This document shows, piece by piece, positions 14,753 through 61,387 of a DNA stretch of 64,000 nucleotides. The translations under genes and the position numbers were made by a program. Each line of letters begins with the position of its first letter. Positions within the stretch are counted from its first letter, which is position 1. This DNA is from Candidatus Altimarinota bacterium (GTDB lineage: Bacteria > Patescibacteriota > Gracilibacteria > 1-14-2-50-48-13), in the NCBI GenBank assembly GCA_046314355.1, contig JBKBWQ010000001.1:544001-608000 (forward strand), given 5' to 3'. The notes under the pieces are model-generated. The model saw only the letters and a list, made by a program, of their open reading frames with translations, searched no databases and was not told where the DNA came from.

Positions 14753-15709
14753 CTAATTTGGACGAGCACAGCTTGCACCTTTTTTACATGTGATCACCTT
14801 ATCTTTTATGCGCAAGTCTATATATGAGTACTCTCCTCCAGTAAGTACATCTGCTTTTAGGTCAGTAAGAAAGCTCTTCAGCATATAAAGCTGAGTATCT
14901 AGATCTTTTTCTACAGCGAAATACACCGTTGTTCCGCTTGCAATCTTCAAATGCATCTCTTTTTCAATCGGAAGAAAACTTAAACCCGCAAGTTTTCCAT
15001 CAAAATTTTTCTGATATGTATCTACTACTTTCTGCAGGAACTGCATTTGATCTTTTGTAAAAATCTTTTTGCCGATCTTTAGTTCGATAAACGGCGTAAG
15101 AATTTCTTTAAATTCATCATATACTTTTGCGTATATCGGTATAGTAATCAAAAGCATTGTAGACTGATCAGTCTGCTTTTGATTTGGATCCGGCTGTACT
15201 ATTACACCGTTTGAATTCAAATAGAATTCTGTCTTTAAGCCTTCATTCTTAATGCGGGCAAATACTGGATAAGAACTTACTTTAAGCTGAAGTGCCTGAG
15301 GAAAGAGACGTCTTATTTCTACAGAAGAGAGCATTGGAAAAGTATCCAGCAAATCTTGTCTAAGCTCATCTGTATTTACAAAAAGAATATTCTGTCCCTT
15401 TATTTTTGCCACATACTGCTCTATCTGCTGAGGATTTACATATGCGGAATCCCGTACCACTGAAATACTAGAGATATGAAAGAAACCTGAGACAAATACT
15501 ATTCCCATCACGATACCCATGAAGGTAATGCTCAGACATGCAAGAAAAAACCTGGGAGTGGTAAATTTGGAAATTTTTTTATTAAAACCTGAAGAAAAAG
15601 CCCTAAAAGTTCTTTGGTTTTTTTTCTTCAACTGCGGACGTAGCCTTCTCGGACGTTCAACATGAAGAAGAGTTGAGAGTTTCTTCTTTTGATTACGGAT
15701 ACTCTTCAT
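14753..15709 (-). CDS. ftsQ: FtsQ/DivIB-type POTRA protein
   Basis: Basic N-terminus, TM, POTRA (GQNILF, VEIRRLFP), C-terminal YIDLR. Confidence 0.8.
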   Translation of the reverse strand: MKSIRNQKKKLSTLLHVERPRRLRPQLKKKNQRTFRAFSSGFNKKISKFTTPRFFLACLSITFMGIVMGIVFVSGFFHISSISVVRDSAYVNPQQIEQYVAKIKGQNILFVNTDELRQDLLDTFPMLSSVEIRRLFPQALQLKVSSYPVFARIKNEGLKTEFYLNSNGVIVQPDPNQKQTDQSTMLLITIPIYAKVYDEFKEILTPFIELKIGKKIFTKDQMQFLQKVVDTYQKNFDGKLAGLSFLPIEKEMHLKIASGTTVYFAVEKDLDTQLYMLKSFLTDLKADVLTGGEYSYIDLRIKDKVITCKKGASCARPN

Positions 15710-15715
15710 AGAATA

Positions 15716-17257
15716 TTAATTGGCAGCAAGCAAAGTTCTGTAGTCGTTTCCTACTAAAATGACTATGTCATAATGACTTTGCTGTTCAGCTAGAAAATCA
15801 GATAAAGCAACTTCAGGGAATGCATCCAGCGCATCCTGATTGAATTGAAGTTTTTCTGCGTTAAATAAATTACTTATATGCGGAATATAGGTTTTCATCG
15901 CATTATCGTTCATTGCTACAATCGTCGAAGTTGTAAGCGAAGTCTGGTCAGGTGCATTTACTGACTCTTCAATATTAATTCCGTAAGGCACAAAAGTACT
16001 GCTTATGGATTGTCCGATACCGCTTATTCTCTTGGTACCGGATTTTGTAGCATTCACTACAAGAATTTTAGGATTGCCGCTGTAAAATGCCTGAGAGAAT
16101 AAGAACATCTCAGCAAACTGCTGAAGCTGTTTATAGTATGAAAGATTTCCTGCTGTTGCTCCGCTTGGCAGTAGGACAGAAGCTCCGCCGAAGAGTGCAC
16201 GCTGCGGCACATAAAGGAATCCTCCTTCTTTAGTATAATCATCATGAAAACCAGCAGAAAGAATATGATCTCCCTTTAAATCCTTTGCAAATCCTGCTCC
16301 ACGAAGAATTTCCCGAAGATCCATGTTGGTCACAATATTCTCGCTTACAGCATAGTAAAGACGTTTCAGCTGATTTGGATCTGTCAGATATTGCTTCTCC
16401 ATCACCTTATCTAATACCGCTTTCATGATAGTATGCTGTCTTTCAGAACGATCAAAGTCGGAAGTTGAATGACGGCTTCTCGCATATTTAAGTGCAGTAG
16501 CACCATCAAAATGCCGCATACCTTTTCTTACGGCAAAGGTCTCATATCCATAGGATTCATTTGGATACTCGCGGTCAATAAGATCTCTCGGAACATCTAC
16601 ATCCACTCCTCCAAGTAGATCAACTACTTGAATGAATCCCTGAAAATCAGCTTTCACAAAATACTGGATACTTACACCAGTAATATTTTCAACAATATCC
16701 TGAAGTCCCTGCATACCTTCCTGAACCTCGTTAAAGGTAGGAGGAGTATTAGTTTTTGCAGCATTCGAAGCTCCATCAGCCTTTGTAATCTGACGAAGGT
16801 TAAAGTCATACGCGGCATTAATCTTTGTAGGTCCCATCTGCGGAACATTAATATAGAGGTCTCTTGGGATAGATAAAAGTGCAACCGAATGATTTTGACT
16901 ATCAATACTTGCAACCATAAGTGTATCTGTAAGGTTGGCACCATCATGCTCAGCTCCGCCGATACCTACGATAAGTATATTTGTATGACCATTCGGATCT
17001 TTCTTAAGGTCTTTACCGAAGACTTCTGAAATCCCGGAAATAACCTGAGAAGGAAAATTTACAGAGAATCCCTTAAAAAGACCAAATACATTGATTGTAA
17101 GAATAAGCACAAATACTACACCTAGAAGTGCAACAAGTAATGGAAAGGACTTATATGATTTCTTTTTTTTGCTTGTGTCAGAAACGTTATTTGCGGGTTG
17201 TTGTTCATTATCTACTACACTTTGAGTACGCTCAATATCGCGTTTTATAAATGTCAT
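15716..17257 (-). CDS. LCP (LytR-CpsA-Psr) family protein with LytR_C domain
   Basis: NILIVG, TDTLMV, LSIPRDL, KINAAY, YARSRH, DFDRSERQ. Confidence 0.95.
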   Translation of the reverse strand: MTFIKRDIERTQSVVDNEQQPANNVSDTSKKKKSYKSFPLLVALLGVVFVLILTINVFGLFKGFSVNFPSQVISGISEVFGKDLKKDPNGHTNILIVGIGGAEHDGANLTDTLMVASIDSQNHSVALLSIPRDLYINVPQMGPTKINAAYDFNLRQITKADGASNAAKTNTPPTFNEVQEGMQGLQDIVENITGVSIQYFVKADFQGFIQVVDLLGGVDVDVPRDLIDREYPNESYGYETFAVRKGMRHFDGATALKYARSRHSTSDFDRSERQHTIMKAVLDKVMEKQYLTDPNQLKRLYYAVSENIVTNMDLREILRGAGFAKDLKGDHILSAGFHDDYTKEGGFLYVPQRALFGGASVLLPSGATAGNLSYYKQLQQFAEMFLFSQAFYSGNPKILVVNATKSGTKRISGIGQSISSTFVPYGINIEESVNAPDQTSLTTSTIVAMNDNAMKTYIPHISNLFNAEKLQFNQDALDAFPEVALSDFLAEQQSHYDIVILVGNDYRTLLAAN

Positions 17258-30904: not shown

Positions 30905-31114
30905 TTTGTCCTCCTTTCTAACAAAAATTGTGTTTTGGTCAGCCGTGCCCACTCATCTAGTATTTTTGTATGACATTGAAAATTCAAACGCACAGAAATA
31001 TCCTCTGTGATTTTTGTGTAATCCAGCATTGTCAACGAACAAACCTGTAAGGAATTGTAGCTGTACCAGAGTCTACAGTCAAAAGATTCGCAGACTCTGG
31101 TACAGGAGCTATAT

Positions 31115-33007
31115 TTATATGATCTTCAGATCTTTTAACACAAGATGTACCTCTTCTTCTGAGACATCACCCATCTGGGCAGCAAGAAGATCTTTCATCT
31201 GAATAGTTACAAGTCTCTTATATTGAATACAGTTTTTCATCAACTCTTTATGAGTTCCTTCTCCGGCAATTTTACCTTTATCCAGTACTACAATTTTGTC
31301 GGCATGAATAATTGTAGACAATCTGTGAGCAATAATGATTGTAGTTCTCCCCTTTGAGACATCTTTAATCGCTTTTTGGATTAACTTTTCATTCTCAGAA
31401 TCAAGAGAGCTCGTAGCTTCATCAAAAATAAGTATGGTTGGATCTTTCAGAAGAGCACGAGCAATTCCCACTCTTTGTTTTTCTCCTCCTGAGAGCCTGA
31501 TACCATTCTCACCTATTTGACTCTCAAGACCATTTGGAAGTCGTTCTAAAAATTTATCAATACATGCCATTTTAATTATCTTCTCTAGTTCTTTTTCACT
31601 TACTTCTTTAGAATTAGAAACCCCATACAATAGATTTTCTTTTAGACTGCCATCAAATAGCCTAACATCCTGAGGCACTATACCGATGTGTTTTCTAAGA
31701 AATGTTAAGGGTAAATCTCTAATATCAATATTATCAAAGGCGATATGGCCTCCCGTAACGTCATAATATCTTTGAAGAAGTTTCATCAAAGTGCTTTTGC
31801 CACTACCAGAATGTCCTACTAGTGCAGTCGTTTTACCTGCAGGAATCTCAAGATCAAAATCTGTAAAAAGCGGAAGTGAGATATCTACCTTAGTCGCTGT
31901 AGCATTTTCATCCTTCATCTTTTCTAATGCCTCTTTATAAAAAAAATTCATCTTTGAAAAAACAATATGTCCTTGAATCTTATCAGGTACACTTGTTAAA
32001 ACATTGTCTGAAACCACAGGCTCCTTTCTCAACATCTCAAGAAGCTTCTCTGCATTTACGAGATTATCAATAAAGTCCCTCTCAAAGTTTGTAAGATCTC
32101 TTACAGCACCTACCACCATTCCACCCCAGGAAGTAAAAAGAAGAATATATCCAGGTGTAAATCTGCCTGTAAAAATAAAATATGCACCTAGAAATAAAAT
32201 ACTATAATAAAATACTTGAAATAAAAACTGTCTTATATTCTGCATCTTCATTGAAGGTATCCATATTGAATTGCTCAGATCTCTGAGAAATTTAAATTTA
32301 TTATGCAGCCAAGTAGCTTCAGCCTCTTCTCTTCCAAATTGCTTTACTGTCTCAATTTCCCTCGTAACCTCTTTCATATGTGACCAGCGCTTATTCATAT
32401 GATCTATCATATTCTTCATAGGTTTTTTTACATATTTATTTGTGTATCTGATATCTGCCCAAAGTCTCGCGATCACAGCAACAGTGAGTAGCAAACCTAG
32501 CTCCCATGATATAAAGAAAAGTACAGTCATCGTGATCACAAGTGTAAAGACTGCTGGGAAGACATCATACAAAAGCTGCTGTATCATATTTGTAAATCCT
32601 GATACACCATTTTGATAGATGGCAAATTTTATGCCGCTTCCTTGTTCTATGTGTTGCCCAATAGAGAACTGAAGCATTTTTTCAAAACCATACTGTTCTA
32701 GCAAAAGACGTCCCTTCCATCTAAAACGGTGAGCCTGTGACTGTCTTAGATAATTTAATATACTCTGCACAAGTGCCAGCCCTATTAAGATCTCAAATAT
32801 AATGACTAATGAATCCAAAGACTGCTTCTGAACAATAGCATCTATCATTTGCTTCCAGAAAACCGGCTGGATGATAGAGGCCCCTTGAGCCAAAAATATT
32901 AGACCAACAGCATAATACATATCCCCTCTCATTGGCTTTGTAAACTGCCAGAGATCTTTTAGTATAGATAGCGTTGATGATTTCTTTTTCTTTTGTTCAA
33001 AAAGCAT
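31115..33007 (-). CDS. ABC exporter, fused TMD and ATPase
   Basis: Multi-TM N-terminus; GHSGSGKST, LSGGEKQR, IFDEATSSLD, IAHRLST. Confidence 0.96.
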   Translation of the reverse strand: MLFEQKKKKSSTLSILKDLWQFTKPMRGDMYYAVGLIFLAQGASIIQPVFWKQMIDAIVQKQSLDSLVIIFEILIGLALVQSILNYLRQSQAHRFRWKGRLLLEQYGFEKMLQFSIGQHIEQGSGIKFAIYQNGVSGFTNMIQQLLYDVFPAVFTLVITMTVLFFISWELGLLLTVAVIARLWADIRYTNKYVKKPMKNMIDHMNKRWSHMKEVTREIETVKQFGREEAEATWLHNKFKFLRDLSNSIWIPSMKMQNIRQFLFQVFYYSILFLGAYFIFTGRFTPGYILLFTSWGGMVVGAVRDLTNFERDFIDNLVNAEKLLEMLRKEPVVSDNVLTSVPDKIQGHIVFSKMNFFYKEALEKMKDENATATKVDISLPLFTDFDLEIPAGKTTALVGHSGSGKSTLMKLLQRYYDVTGGHIAFDNIDIRDLPLTFLRKHIGIVPQDVRLFDGSLKENLLYGVSNSKEVSEKELEKIIKMACIDKFLERLPNGLESQIGENGIRLSGGEKQRVGIARALLKDPTILIFDEATSSLDSENEKLIQKAIKDVSKGRTTIIIAHRLSTIIHADKIVVLDKGKIAGEGTHKELMKNCIQYKRLVTIQMKDLLAAQMGDVSEEEVHLVLKDLKII

Positions 33008-33120
33008 AGTAGCTAGCTAATAGATAAACATTCTGGAGCATACGTTTAGTGTTGTTTCAAAAAAAGTTTTTTTATATTTTATTGTGAGTATACTATATAT
33101 GTAAGCAATAAGAGCACAGA

Positions 33121-33190
33121 AGTAATTAGACTCAATCATTAAGTAATTGAGCTCAATTATTGTAGCCCAATTATTCCATTACTTAATTCC
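33121..33190. repeat. ATTGAGCTCAAT-type palindromic array, copy 4
   Basis: GTAATTAGACTCAATCATTAAGTAATTGAGCTCAATTATTGTAGCCCAATTA. Confidence 0.88.
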
Positions 33191-33202
33191 TCCCTTATTT
33201 CT

Positions 33203-33750
33203 AAAAAAAGAACCCCATGCTTTGGTAAGCTCTGGGATTCTATTCATCTCATAGGCAAGAAAAATAGAATCTTTCCTTTGTGATGTGTGTTTTTGTTTGA
33301 GTGACAACTGCTCAAAAGTGTAATTCATGCTGTGCTTCGGTCATATACCTCTCCTAATGCCGAGGAGTGACTGATCCCTCGAAGGGATCTGAACCCCGCC
33401 TCGTCTCATATACGAAGTGGAAGAAAATCCAGGTGTAATGATCGGAAGCAAAGCTCGTCAGAATTAATGAGAAGAGGGATGTCATCTCCCTTCTCTTTTT
33501 CGCAAAGCAGTGAAAAATGAATATTCCTTAAATACTTAAGAACTACTCGTTACTCACTACTTACATCTTATTGTAAAGGATCAAATGTAGGACTCCGGCC
33601 GGAAGTCTTTTGCTTTCCTTACTTCTTGTAGGACTTCGCTCTCCGTGGCAGGAAGGAAATCTAAATGGTAAGAATTGCTTTTTTGTTTTTTAAAATTTGT
33701 TTTGGTTTAGTCTTCTTTTTGTTTTGTTTGAAGCTGTTGTATTTTTAAGC
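33203..33750 (-). ncRNA. candidate long structured RNA, locus A
   Basis: No ORF of 60 aa or more; many hairpins; promoter TTGCTT/TAAGAT (33786-33759); terminator 33203-33241. Confidence 0.45.
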
Positions 33751-33874
33751 TTCATAGGATCTTAATCTTTTTAAAAAATAAAGCAAGAAGAAGATGAGTG
33801 ACAAAGTATGTTTATTGTTTTAAAACATGATTATTTATTATAAAATGTATTTACTGTAAACAGATTACGTGAAA

Positions 33875-33955
33875 GTAATTATATCATTGGACTCAATAAT
33901 TTGGCGCACATTATTAGGCTCAATCATTAAGGCTACAATTATTGAGCCCAATTGC
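33875..33955. repeat. ATTGAGCTCAAT-type palindromic array, copy 5
   Basis: ATTGGACTCAATAATTTGGCGCACATTATTAGGCTCAATCATTAAGGCTACAATTATTGAGCCCAATT. Confidence 0.88.
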
Positions 33956-34059
33956 TCTCCTACTTAATTACTCTCCTACTAAATTACTTCTTTCCTTTAT
34001 TACTTTTCTTTTTTCTGATATTCTTGAGTCACTGTATTTTTAGATTTTCATGTCATTCC

Positions 34060-34731
34060 ATGGATTCGCAAGATCAAAAAAATCCCCTTCCAGAAACGCA
34101 GCAAGAATTTTTTTCTCAAGCAACATATCAGCAGCCATCTCAGACTCCTGACGGATCAGAGAAAAAGAGAAGATTAGATACGAGGGCTATTCGTTCCAAA
34201 ATCAGTCAAAGCTTTGCGCAGACAGTGCAAAACTTCTTTTATCAGACCACAATGACCGAAAAGGTAGTCATTGTCTCAAGCATACTGGTCATAGTCTTTA
34301 CTCTTACAAAATGGGGAGCTATAGAAAAAGAGACAGTTACTGGGATTTCAAATCTTGTCTACTTTATTGGATGGTTATTGATAGCATCTGCTCTCTTAAG
34401 TATCGGTTCATTAGTCTGGTTTCTTGCAGGAAAATCATTTCCAAAGTCTTTCCCTTCACTTCCTGTTATTCAGATGATCTTAGGCATCGAGATCGTACAA
34501 TTAGCAATTATAGGCTACACAGTACTTACAGCTTTCAAAACAACGATTTCATTTAATGCAGAAGATGTAACTCTTAGTCCCGCACTCATTGTGCTCTTTG
34601 GAATACTGATATTTGCGTCAGGGTTATTTGAAGAGCGCATCCACCAAAAGAAATCAAATCCTACCAAGCTGCCTAGTAATATGTACGCTCGTCCTGAAGA
34701 GCATGATCTTGACCGTATCCTTTCAGAATAA
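34060..34731 (+). CDS. multi-TM membrane protein
   Basis: Start MDSQDQK at 34060; four hydrophobic segments. Confidence 0.8.
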   Translation: MDSQDQKNPLPETQQEFFSQATYQQPSQTPDGSEKKRRLDTRAIRSKISQSFAQTVQNFFYQTTMTEKVVIVSSILVIVFTLTKWGAIEKETVTGISNLVYFIGWLLIASALLSIGSLVWFLAGKSFPKSFPSLPVIQMILGIEIVQLAIIGYTVLTAFKTTISFNAEDVTLSPALIVLFGILIFASGLFEERIHQKKSNPTKLPSNMYARPEEHDLDRILSE

Positions 34732-34739
34732 TCCTTCCT

Positions 34740-35273
34740 ATGCATACTTTTCTTCTTACTATTCTTTGTTTCATACTCTTCTTGAATGTATTACTAATGC
34801 TTGCACTAGTAATAGGTTTCTTTTACAAAGTACCTTATGTTCCTTCCACTAAGGCACAAATCAGAAAAATGATTGAAGCGGCTGACATCAAAGCAGGTGA
34901 ACATATTGCAGATCTTGGCTGCGGTGACGGAAAGATCTTATTTATGGCAGAAAAATATTCTAAGGGCGTAAGCTTTACTGGATACGAGATCGCACCAATG
35001 CCGATACTTTTCTTCTATATGAAAAAAATCTTCAATAGATCTAAAGCGTCTCTCAAGACTATGGATTTCATGAAAGAAGATTATTCTAAATATTCTGTGA
35101 TATTTCTCTACCTTCTTCCTGAGGCAATGGATAAACTCCTTCCCAAATTTGAAAAAGAGCTCCCTAAAGGCGCCCGTGTGATTTCTAATGTATTTACCTT
35201 CAAAAATAAGAAACCATCTATGGTCATTGATGCAGACAAAAAGATGCATTCAGTAAACTTATATACGTTCTAA
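34740..35273 (+). CDS. class I SAM-dependent methyltransferase (membrane-anchored)
   Basis: PYVPS, DLGCGDG, FLYLLP, GARVISN. Confidence 0.9.
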   Translation: MHTFLLTILCFILFLNVLLMLALVIGFFYKVPYVPSTKAQIRKMIEAADIKAGEHIADLGCGDGKILFMAEKYSKGVSFTGYEIAPMPILFFYMKKIFNRSKASLKTMDFMKEDYSKYSVIFLYLLPEAMDKLLPKFEKELPKGARVISNVFTFKNKKPSMVIDADKKMHSVNLYTF

Positions 35274-35340
35274 ATTTGAAAGCATAATAAAATAAAACCC
35301 CGGAGAATACATTCTTCGGGGTTTTATTTTAAGCATAGGA

Positions 35341-36417
35341 TTAAACCATATTTTCCATAGCAAGTTTTTTTGCCTGATCCTCAACACGGAGAGATTCTAT
35401 GATATCTCCCATCTTTCCATCCATGATTCCTGGAATATTACTCCAGCTCTTTTTTATACGATGATCAGTAATTCTATCCTGAGGAAAATTGTATGTACGG
35501 ATTTTTTCTGATCTATCTCCAGATCCAATCTGTGAAGAACGTATATCTCCTCTCTCCTTTGCTCTCTTACTCTCTTCTAGATCATAGAGACGGGCTCGGA
35601 GTACCTGAAGTGCCTTTTCCCTATTTTTATGCTGAGAACGCTCATCCTGACACTCTACTACGAGACCTGTCGGGATATGTACCATTCGTACCGCACTATC
35701 TGTCTTATTTACTTTCTGACCTCCTGCTCCAGAAGCTCTACATGTAGTAATTTCAAGATCTTCAGAACGTATTTCGATGTCTACTTCTTCTACTTCAGGC
35801 AGTACTGCTACTGAAGCTGCAGATGTATGGATTCTTCCCTGGCTTTCTGTGGCCGGAATACGTTGCACACGATGCACTCCGCTCTCATATTTGAGCTTTC
35901 CATATACTTCTTCACCAGTGAGGCGCAGTACCATTTCTTTTACACCTGCACCAGTTGTACTCTCACTCATGCTCATTACTTCCGCAGTCCAACCGCGCTC
36001 TTCAGCAAACCGTGTATACATACGTCCGAGCTCAGCAGCAAAGAGAGCAGCTTCTTCTCCACCAGTACCCGCTCGAAGCTCGAGAATGACGTTCTTAGAG
36101 TCATTTGGATCTCTCGGCAGGAGTGAGATTTTTACTTTTTGAAGCAAATCTTCTTCTTTTGATTTTGCATCATTGAGCTGCTCTTGTGCTAGATCAAGCA
36201 TCTCGGGATCACTTTCCGCCTCAATAATCTCCTCTGCTTCTTTTTTAGCGGCAAGTACCTGTTTATATGCTCTATAAATCTCAACAATAGGCTTGAGAGC
36301 CGCATGCCGCTTCATTACCTTCACATATCCCCCCTGATCATTCATCAAATCAGGATCCATCATCTTCTCTTCCATCTCAAGAAATTCTTTTTCTATATTT
36401 TCTAGTTTCTCAAACAT
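35341..36417 (-). CDS. prfA: peptide chain release factor 1
   Basis: [16 protein letters not shown] specificity motif, [16 protein letters not shown]. Confidence 0.98.
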
Positions 36418-47757: not shown

Positions 47758-48192
47758 TTAGTCCTGTTTATCAGAGGTTTTAATCTTCTGAAAAATTGTA
47801 TTAAGAACGCCATTCACAAATTTTGAGCTTGTCTCACTGCCGTAGTTTTTTGCAAGCTCGACTGCCTCATTGATAGCAACAACCTCTGGTACTTCTTTAT
47901 TGAAAAGTATCTCAAAGATACCGATATATAAAATACATCGGTCTATGAGTGCAATTTTTTCCAATGGCCATTCAGGAGCAAAGTCTCTGATATGCTGTTC
48001 AATAGTTTCTAGATTTTTATCTATACCTTCCAATATTAGCTGTGTGAATTCCAGCTTCTTATCTTGATACTCATAAAAATGTCTATTGTTTTCTGTAAGA
48101 ACATCCAGCAAGGGCTTATTTCTTTCACGAAACTCCCACGTATAAAGAGTTTTGAGCGCAAATTCACGACCCACATGTCTATTAATCTTCAT
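47758..48192 (-). CDS. nusB: transcription antitermination factor NusB
   Basis: IDRCIL, VAINEAVELAK, FVNGVL. Confidence 0.97.
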   Translation of the reverse strand: MKINRHVGREFALKTLYTWEFRERNKPLLDVLTENNRHFYEYQDKKLEFTQLILEGIDKNLETIEQHIRDFAPEWPLEKIALIDRCILYIGIFEILFNKEVPEVVAINEAVELAKNYGSETSSKFVNGVLNTIFQKIKTSDKQD

Positions 48193-60839: not shown

Positions 60840-61305
60840 AAAAGTCGCCATTTGGTAATGGCGAACTTTTTATTTTTGTTTCGTTTGGAGTGCGAGTTTT
60901 GGCGCCCCAAGAAACGTATAGAAGTCGACGGAACCTCTCTGTTGTAGATCTCAACCTTACTTCGGTAATACAATGTCCCGCATCCCAAGGGTCGCTATAG
61001 CGAGATTTGATGAGCCGATTTTAGACTTGCTCCAAAGAGGAAGACCAGCCGCACCGCATCTCAGCAGTGGTGGAGGAGCAATTGGGAGTCACCCAAACGT
61101 CCAGTTTCATAAAGTAGAGACAAATGAGAGCAAGATGGAATCCCTACGGGAGAGAGCCTACATCTCTGGCTCAGAAAGTTTAGTGCCTCTCAGTGAACCT
61201 TGGTAGATTATGAGTGGTACGCTTCCGTGAGACACGATGAGATGAATAGGCCATCTATCTTTCATTTATCCCTGCTTGTGTTGTTAAAGATCTTTTTTGT
61301 TTTGA
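60840..61305 (-). ncRNA. candidate long structured RNA, locus B
   Basis: GC-richer than flanks, many hairpins; TTGATT-17-TAAGAT promoter; boxA-like GATCTTTAACAA; terminator 60840-60870. Confidence 0.45.
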
Positions 61306-61387
61306 TTTTCATAGTATCTTAATCGATTTAAATAAATTAATCAAATAAGAATCATTTACACATACTGAAATTTATTTTAAAAGAACA

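Follow-up and report, generated by a model that had tools for sequence, protein, structure and literature searches.

What is encoded by a stretch of about half a kilobase that is poor in open reading frames (ORFs), rich in hairpins and seemingly repeated in outline elsewhere in the same genome? We address this question for locus A, which lies on the minus strand at positions 33203-33790 of a 64,000-nucleotide window (contig JBKBWQ010000001.1, positions 544,001 to 608,000) from a Candidatus Altimarinota bacterium; the window means this whole stretch throughout. A first-pass annotation of the window had suggested that locus A and a sister, locus B, near 61 kb belong to an undescribed family of ~0.5 kb RNAs, either structured or bearing small ORFs, with a shared frame and a variable interior. 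The structured RNA half of that suggestion is supported by the lack of any Rfam 15 match, by strong covariation, by relatives in other genomes and by the absence of a coding signal. We conclude that locus A very probably belongs to a genuine family of structured RNAs and, with equal confidence, that A and B are stand-alone genes for diverged paralogs of one large structured non-coding RNA family. From its sequence, this RNA appears to represent a new class.

With all 4227 models of Rfam 15 at their gathering thresholds, three tRNAs are the only matches in the window. We also scanned both loci at E values up to 10, where the best match to locus A is sraA at 29.4 bits (threshold 56) and the best match to locus B reaches 21.2 bits (threshold 102.3). 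A search of the full-text literature, with subscription journals and supplements outside its coverage, found no description of such an RNA.

Homologs of locus B are present in two sister genera, with two copies in one genome (G002) and a single copy in another (G001), at 70-73% identity. Across these four B-type RNAs, RNAalifold predicts 87 base pairs, 32 of them with compensatory changes, and the terminator hairpin of B (pairs 463-470 with 475-482) is kept in the homologs through such changes. In the MAFFT alignment of a 240-nt B-type core, 93.9% of cells form standard pairs, with changes on both sides in 23 of the 58 pairs, a level of covariation reached by none of 500 shuffles. Controls in which the partners were slid by 1-3 columns gave 41-47% paired cells and 3-5 double-change pairs. 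Adding locus A and two distant relatives (G017a and G015) in a model-fitted alignment of seven sequences gives 92.6% paired cells and 35 of 58 double-change pairs, again equaled by 0 of 500 shuffles. Covariation across homologs of B, which the first-pass annotation had named as a check, is therefore strong, and the multi-helix core predicted for the B-type RNAs is backed by compensatory changes.

We next consider how locus A is related to locus B. Only the four B-type cores, and not A, went into a covariance model (R1), which was run unfiltered on both strands of the whole window. R1 scores 231.6 bits at locus B and 24.2 bits at locus A (33288-33517, model positions 1-237), and the next-best match in the window is 8.2 bits. 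The alignment of A is colinear with the model: the closing helix is followed by the first hairpin, a large insertion that replaces the B-type long hairpin, a hairpin before a conserved ACCRAAG junction and, past it, the closing helix's 3' strand and a further hairpin. A full-length match at 24.2 bits over an 8.2-bit background indicates, within the reach of this model, that A is a diverged paralog of B, a relationship that goes beyond a shared frame around an unrelated interior. Thus, the proposal of a shared frame with a variable interior holds in part: the frame is indeed shared and one interior domain (P4) cannot be aligned, but the core is homologous and comprises the closing helix P2, the first hairpin and a pseudoknot at ACCRAAG. 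The sense strand of locus A (550 nt) is also unusually stable when folded (z = -5.19, with 0 of 100 shuffles as stable; antisense z = -3.38), as is locus B (z = -4.31). The stretch 33203-33790 has no second copy in the genome.

The elements of the two loci, with coordinates read by hand from the sequence, are listed below in the order of transcription. The boxA-like 13-mer, three hairpins, A/C-rich tracts and terminator that had been claimed for locus A were all located.

Locus A
33781..33786, minus strand: -35 hexamer, 16-base spacer to the -10, supported by the alignment of B-type promoters
33759..33764, minus strand: -10 hexamer, 4/6 consensus positions, the same in locus B and the 16S promoter, inside the 17-base motif described below
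33203..33752, minus strand: predicted transcript of ~550 nt, start ~7 bases after the -10, end at the terminator T run
33730..33753, minus strand: 5'-terminal hairpin in the minimum-free-energy fold, with an equivalent in both G002 copies (by eye)
33729-33678, minus strand: A/C-rich unpaired leader after the 5'-terminal hairpin
33674-33615 and 33607-33591, minus strand: two leader hairpins in the minimum-free-energy fold
33571..33583, minus strand: boxA-like element, 10 bases upstream of helix P1
33507..33560, minus strand: long hairpin P1 directly before the core, purine-rich 5' strand and pyrimidine-rich 3' strand, from folds
33502..33508, minus strand: closing helix P2, 5' strand, pairs with 33335-33329; model alignment, 6/7 inner pairs
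33469..33495, minus strand: hairpin P3 (27 nt, 7-base loop), the 8-bp hairpin of the first-pass annotation, aligns to the B-type first hairpin
33368..33461, minus strand: variable domain P4, a 4-5 bp closing helix around a long hairpin and a 6-bp hairpin (33389-33373)
33337..33367, minus strand: candidate H-type pseudoknot, stem 1 of 4 bp and stem 2 of 7 bp with a bulge, from a restricted search
33341-33335, minus strand: conserved ACCRAAG junction at the 3' end of the candidate pseudoknot
33329..33335, minus strand: closing helix P2, 3' strand, from the model alignment and pair table
33296..33316, minus strand: hairpin P6, the third hairpin noted earlier, from the model alignment
33271..33295, minus strand: 3' A/C-rich tract, read from the sequence
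33203..33240, minus strand: intrinsic terminator, loop 33228-33221 identical to the locus B loop

Locus B
60840..61344, minus strand: whole locus, sister gene of A
61344-61339, minus strand: -35 hexamer, 17-base spacer to the -10
61321-61316, minus strand: -10 hexamer
61293-61281, minus strand: boxA-like element
61273-61116, minus strand: P1
61119-61109 with 60960-50, minus strand: P2
61102-61075, minus strand: P3
61065-60994, minus strand: P4
60991-60962, minus strand: pseudoknot
60938-60920, minus strand: P6
60915-60878, minus strand: P7
60865-60840, minus strand: terminator

Outside the unit
33121..33191, unstranded: dispersed repeat, downstream copy
33871-34010, unstranded: dispersed repeat, upstream copy

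The core described by these elements recurs in more distant members. In the 16 members compared, the seven inner pairs of P2 are nearly always formed (6/7 in A and 7/7 in B). The seventh of these pairs, whose 3' partner lies outside the pattern used to find members (see below), is Watson-Crick in all 16, as A-U in 10 and G-C in 6. The second pair occurs as four pair types, and the fourth is a U-C mismatch in six members including A. When RNAalifold was given nine distant members, it independently predicted P2 (11 pairs) and a 5-bp helix that ends in the ACC of the junction. This helix is stem 2 of an H-type pseudoknot located directly 5' of ACCRAAG; in stem 1, the bases just 5' of stem 2 are paired with the stem-2 loop. 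When the search was confined to this topology, 13 of the 16 members and all four found later (17/20) gave the pseudoknot, and for 8 of the 17 none of 500 shuffles is as good. At least nine different stem-1 sequences retain complementarity. By contrast with this core, P4 of locus A is an 84-base insertion relative to the B-type model and is not alignable with B. A hairpin equivalent to P1 precedes the core in all eight family sequences that were folded (by eye). Taken together, the sequences show that distant members share a core of P2, P3 and a pseudoknot abutting ACCRAAG, with variable domains and A/C-rich tracts in between. A/C-rich tracts are present in every member read, at varying positions.

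A second tertiary contact may join two loops of the RNA. In locus A, five bases of the P6 loop are complementary to the P3 loop (33484-33480), with 103 of 1000 shuffles also reaching 5 bp. Inspection by eye shows complementarity between the first-hairpin loop and one in the 3' domain, and the complementary pair differs between lineages. The P3-P6 contact in A is a candidate, only suggestive at present and best treated as a lead.

Stand-alone transcription of both loci is predicted from their flanking signals. The 17-base motif GATTAAGATNCTATGAA is found on the minus strand at 33767-33751 in locus A and 61324-61308 in locus B, 16 of 17 positions being identical, exactly as had been claimed. Allowing up to 2 mismatches, the window holds 3 matches against a shuffle mean of 0.19 (0 of 100 shuffles reach 3), and the whole genome (G000; 1,688,208 bases in 28 contigs, 98% complete) holds 5 matches with up to 2 substitutions, exact only at loci A and B. 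The third match in the window (15705-15721, minus strand, 2 mismatches) is weaker and apparently sits amid ordinary sequence. In the B-type alignment, the middle of the motif aligns to a consensus TATAAT in G002 and to TACAAT in G001. Given these aligned hexamers in the sister genera, which also fix the promoter register at A and B, the motif is most simply read as a sigma-70-type -10 hexamer together with the first transcribed bases. The first-pass annotation had asked whether the shared motifs occur at ordinary promoters. The exact 17-mer occurs at none other in the genome; the single 16S rRNA gene shares just the -10 hexamer, placed after a near-consensus -35 and a 17-base spacer.

At the other end, both predicted intrinsic terminators are G+C-rich hairpins followed by a T run, of 7 T in A (33240-33203) and 4 T in B (60865-60840). 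Their 8-base loops are identical (33228-33221 and 60858-60851), as had been noted, and a terminator loop consensus of UACCMA is common to A, the B-type RNAs and both copies in G017. The same loop caps an internal hairpin of B, one of the G002 copies (G002a) and G364. In a genome-wide scan for TACCNA-loop hairpins with a T run, 12 of 2939 occurrences qualify, B alone is convincing, and A is missed because of its bulged stem. From its promoter and terminator, the B transcript would span ~61309 to 60840, or ~470 nt. By eye, a 7-base stretch within 33240-33268 (minus strand) could pair with bases overlapping the 5' strand of the terminator of A, in a pairing that excludes the terminator.

How far does the family reach? 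Among 151 genomes of the class, R1 gives weak full-length matches in G017 (two copies, 29.4 and 18.7 bits) and G015 (26.8 bits), and among 40 relatives in G023 (13.9 bits). Three further candidates (L054, L055 and L056, 10.6-11.4 bits) were read as coding sequence and dropped. When the core of A and G017a were compared with 401 class genomes by DNA similarity, only short, chance-level matches were found apart from the known paralog. We also used a two-part signature pattern (IUPAC code), TYTNTRCTKTDYG, then 110-200 bases, then ACCRAAGNANRG, which gives 16 matches in 14 of the 401 genomes; the pattern written backwards gives 1. Half of the 16 had already been identified as members, and A is not among these. 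Among the eight matches that are new, seven show a -10 hexamer and a terminator along with A/C-rich tracts and, in most cases, a boxA-like element (read by eye), and the eighth (G109) is likely false, as it resembles coding sequence and its seventh P2 pair fails. A stricter pattern applied to one genome per species returned 8 records, 4 of them new, and the titles of all 8 name Candidatus Peregrinibacteria, Peribacteria, Gracilibacteria or Patescibacteria assemblies. A metagenome scan with a B-type pattern returned one contig, identical to G002a. By pattern and manual reading, the family now amounts to ~20 sequences from 17 genomes in 8 families. The large families of the class have pattern matches in 0/64, 0/43, 0/31, 0/64, 0/31 and 0/28 genomes, although so strict a pattern cannot prove absence. 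So far as searched, the sequences place the family solely in Peregrinibacteria/Peribacteria-type members of the candidate phyla radiation (CPR).

The boxA-like element is conserved in position across the four B-type RNAs while its flanks vary, and by eye such elements occur in 17 of 20 members, in every case immediately before the first long helix; the motif is degenerate. NusB is encoded within the window (47794-48168, minus strand). The tmRNA gene of this genome has a boxA-like 13-mer at G000:C1:791157-791169, downstream of its -10 hexamer and upstream of the mature 5' end, and none was seen at the RNase P RNA gene. The elements observed suggest that untranslated stable RNAs of this organism generally carry a boxA-like element.

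Several observations weigh against the existence of such a family or against the membership of A. No evidence of transcription was found for locus A: the three sequencing runs listed for 31000-36000 are all DNA metagenomes, and one of them contains the stretch. The covariation statistics draw on a small number of related sequences, and the alignment used for the test is also the one from which the structure came. No ortholog of A is found by DNA similarity in 41 relatives or 401 class genomes, a set in which the genus of the host is represented by one genome only, and the membership of A rests on one 24-bit model match together with the shared frame. A also departs from the signature pattern at one position, and it is not reported in its own genome by a whole-genome search with R1. 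From this last result it follows that the first-look filter of the search loses weak members, and R1 is clearly too narrow for the family. The eight new pattern matches score 5-10 bits with R1, which is background level, and distant members are assigned by the pattern, by complementarity in P2 and in the pseudoknot, and by reading their promoters, terminators and boxA-like elements by eye. The pseudoknot is weak in individual sequences, with 36 of 500 shuffles as good in A and 118 of 500 in B, and the topology-restricted search finds none in G001, G038 and G364. A contact of at least 5 bp with the P3 loop is present in 11 of 20 members and significant in no single sequence (22-1000 of 1000 shuffles), in an automated test that picked the wrong loops in some members. 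Lastly, a loose version of the boxA-like element has 49 matches across the genome, most of them within genes, and three members (G311, L074 and L078) start at P2, a few bases after the -10, with neither leader nor boxA. The core function can therefore do without the leader, boxA and P1. This genome yielded no Rho RNA-binding domain, and boxA may accordingly not serve as a shield against Rho.

Could the two loci instead be very diverged copies of an RNA that the genome otherwise seems to lack? We consider it very unlikely that A and B are two paralogs of 6S RNA, or are signal recognition particle (SRP) RNA. The proposal draws on real gaps, in that neither the 6S model (RF00013) nor those for the small and large bacterial SRP RNAs (RF00169 and RF01854) match anywhere in the genome, and on the occurrence of two paralogs per genome in three lineages. 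6S RNA is an abundant stand-alone regulator that sometimes occurs as two paralogs, as in some Firmicutes. However, neither 6S nor SRP RNA is among the Rfam matches of A or B at E up to 10, and the predicted fold is multi-branched with a pseudoknot and not a rod with a central bubble, as 6S RNA is. For SRP RNA, the protein partners are missing too: SRP_SPB, SRP54 and M domains were not found in the genome, and an SRP54-type GTPase scores above the Pfam cut-off in 0 of 31 genomes of the class. With the SRP proteins and RNA both undetectable, no SRP RNA is expected, and the new RNA is hence not an SRP RNA. In addition, most of the class lacks the family as judged by the pattern, whereas RF00169 detects SRP RNA in none of 31 genomes. 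One report describes two SRP subunits as absent in many CPR bacteria (PMC8080830). Loss of the SRP thus seems to be known already, and its class-wide extent is striking.

It is highly improbable that locus A is a messenger RNA encoding one or several small proteins, through either a leaderless mini-ORF at the ATG of the motif or interior ORFs of 36-49 amino acids. Read by eye, the ATG lies 4 bases after the -10 and opens mini-ORFs on the minus strand at 33755-33690 in A (~21 codons) and 61312-61262 in B (~16 codons), and ATG-led mini-ORFs of ~15-21 codons are present in both G002 copies as well. In addition, the sense strand of A has ORFs of 49, 43 and 36 amino acids under genetic code 11. An ATG in this position is nevertheless too near the -10 for the usual start site, it is missing from G001 and from the distant members, and a Pfam scan of 8 small ORFs gave no match. 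If the B-type RNAs were translated, their variable columns should show a three-base rhythm, but these fall evenly on the three codon positions (66/107, 63/106 and 67/108; p = 0.97), no frame is open throughout all four sequences, and the changes are compensatory in helices. The small-ORF alternative offered by the first-pass annotation is accordingly not upheld, as the 5' mini-ORF is not conserved and three-base periodicity is lacking.

A decayed protein gene or mobile-element remnant, in which the hairpins would be accidental, is no more probable as the identity of A. Such a remnant could account for the lack of an ortholog elsewhere, for the dispersed repeats alongside and for A being the more diverged of the two copies. 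The promoter and terminator of A are intact, however, its helices are perfect or compensated and not eroded, and its match to the B-type model is full length, colinear and 16 bits above background. The interior has no repeat copy, and neither locus contains a long frame under code 11 or code 25. Code 25 was checked given that the class includes TGA-recoding lineages; its longest ORFs are 90 amino acids on the sense strand and 117 on the antisense. The genome reads well under code 11, with 55 ORFs of at least 150 amino acids covering 50.7 of the 64 kb of the window and TGA ending 8 of them. A decayed gene, which had been named as a finding that would undo the RNA interpretation, was thus not seen in the frames under either code or in the Pfam scan of small ORFs, no translated database search having been made.

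Weakest is the idea that A acts in cis as a long leader, whether riboswitch or attenuator, for the ABC transporter gene at 33007-31115 on the same minus strand, which begins 195 bases past the terminator of A, given that a strong terminator and a repeat array separate the two, that convergent genes lie downstream of B and both G002 copies, which excludes a leader in cis, and that the neighbors differ in almost every genome.

The surroundings of the RNA genes vary accordingly. No conserved gene neighbor was found among the loci scanned, where the neighbors include genes for an ABC transporter, a phospholipase D-like protein, P-type ATPases, DUF2339, FtsW and enolase. The two G002 copies (L006 and L009; contig C3, 26453-30383) are 3.7 kb apart in the same orientation and flank a DUF2339 membrane-protein gene, and the pair has a P-type ATPase gene on each side. 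In 3 of 14 scanned loci (G015, G311 and G320) the RNA gene has a divergent guanylate kinase gene upstream, as it does, by eye, in G316, L074 and L078. In three distant members the arrangement maps to:

L021, 707-1357: guanylate kinase gene divergent, just upstream of the RNA gene
L069, 801-1469: guanylate kinase gene divergent, just upstream of the RNA gene
L070, 603-1232: guanylate kinase gene divergent, just upstream of the RNA gene

The RNA gene may originally have stood beside the guanylate kinase gene. Hfq was not found in the genome. The first-pass annotation had noted repeat arrays that bracket locus A. Flanking arrays are present, but they belong to an unrelated dispersed repeat, which matches at least 59 other 300-base bins of the genome and does not flank locus B; on both counts the arrays are not part of the unit. 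The repeat is intergenic with sub-repeats of ~13-14 bases, occurs near the RNase P RNA gene and at many other loci, and may be a protein-binding array or a miniature mobile element.

If A and B are genes for a structured RNA, as we think very probable, a strong promoter with a 16S-type -10 would yield a stable, abundant and untranslated transcript. The boxA-like element ahead of the first long helix would recruit NusB/NusE-type factors, as in rRNA operons, and this recruitment would keep RNA polymerase processive and aid folding. The pseudoknot, the possible loop-loop contact and the UACCMA hairpin loops may then build a compact tertiary fold that acts in trans. As for its role, a real RNA of this kind could well be the scaffold or binding partner of one or more proteins in an RNA-protein particle, though we stop short of calling this likely. 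It is rather doubtful that it regulates by base-pairing or sequestering through its A/C-rich tracts, and unlikely that it is catalytic; the rest is left to some other role. We thus favor a protein-binding scaffold over a base-pairing or sequestering regulator and a ribozyme. The boldest possibility, that this RNA is a new ribozyme or forms the core of a new ribonucleoprotein machine peculiar to Peregrinibacteria, is a long shot. It is raised by the size of the RNA, a pseudoknotted core by an invariant single-stranded junction, the rRNA-like signals and persistence in genomes of 1-2 Mb. These features, together with persistence in genomes without an SRP, fit a novel housekeeping function.

Large, intricately folded bacterial RNAs are rare and have historically proved to be ribozymes or the cores of essential particles, and the RNA biology of the CPR is almost unexplored. 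That small genomes keep a non-coding gene of 0.5 kb, often in two copies, makes an idle role unlikely. Natural variants, which include minimal forms starting at P2, long-leader forms and paralog pairs, can be used to delimit the functional core. If the boxA reading is true, the NusB/NusE system gains non-ribosomal targets in this group.

Among known systems, the transcription signals resemble those of rRNA operons, whose leaders carry a boxA bound by the NusB/NusE antitermination complex. As in those leaders, a boxA-like 13-mer follows soon after a strong promoter and precedes a long helix, the -10 is of the 16S type and NusB is encoded. Unlike them, the transcript is not rRNA, as the 16S gene is elsewhere, three members have no boxA, no Rho domain was found and the role of boxA is putative. 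In size class, in having its own promoter and in its pseudoknotted fold, the new RNA is similar to the RNase P RNA and tmRNA of the same genome. Neither of these is the identity of A or B: neither model reports the loci, and both genes lie elsewhere, RNase P RNA at C1:1260698-1261138 (149 bits) and tmRNA at C1:790733-791154 (105.3 bits). The closest parallel may be the orphan large structured RNAs of bacteria, OLE, GOLLD, ROOL, raiA and HEARO, of which the first four are topics of active research. None of these five Rfam families is reported at either locus at E up to 10, and no associated protein gene is found in the neighborhood of the new RNA. Like them, its function is not evident from sequence, and it is a stand-alone RNA of several hundred nucleotides with covarying helices, pseudoknot-type contacts and a narrow range. 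What sets it apart from these orphans is its CPR host, its boxA-like leader, its A/C-rich tracts and its frequent occurrence as two diverged paralogs.

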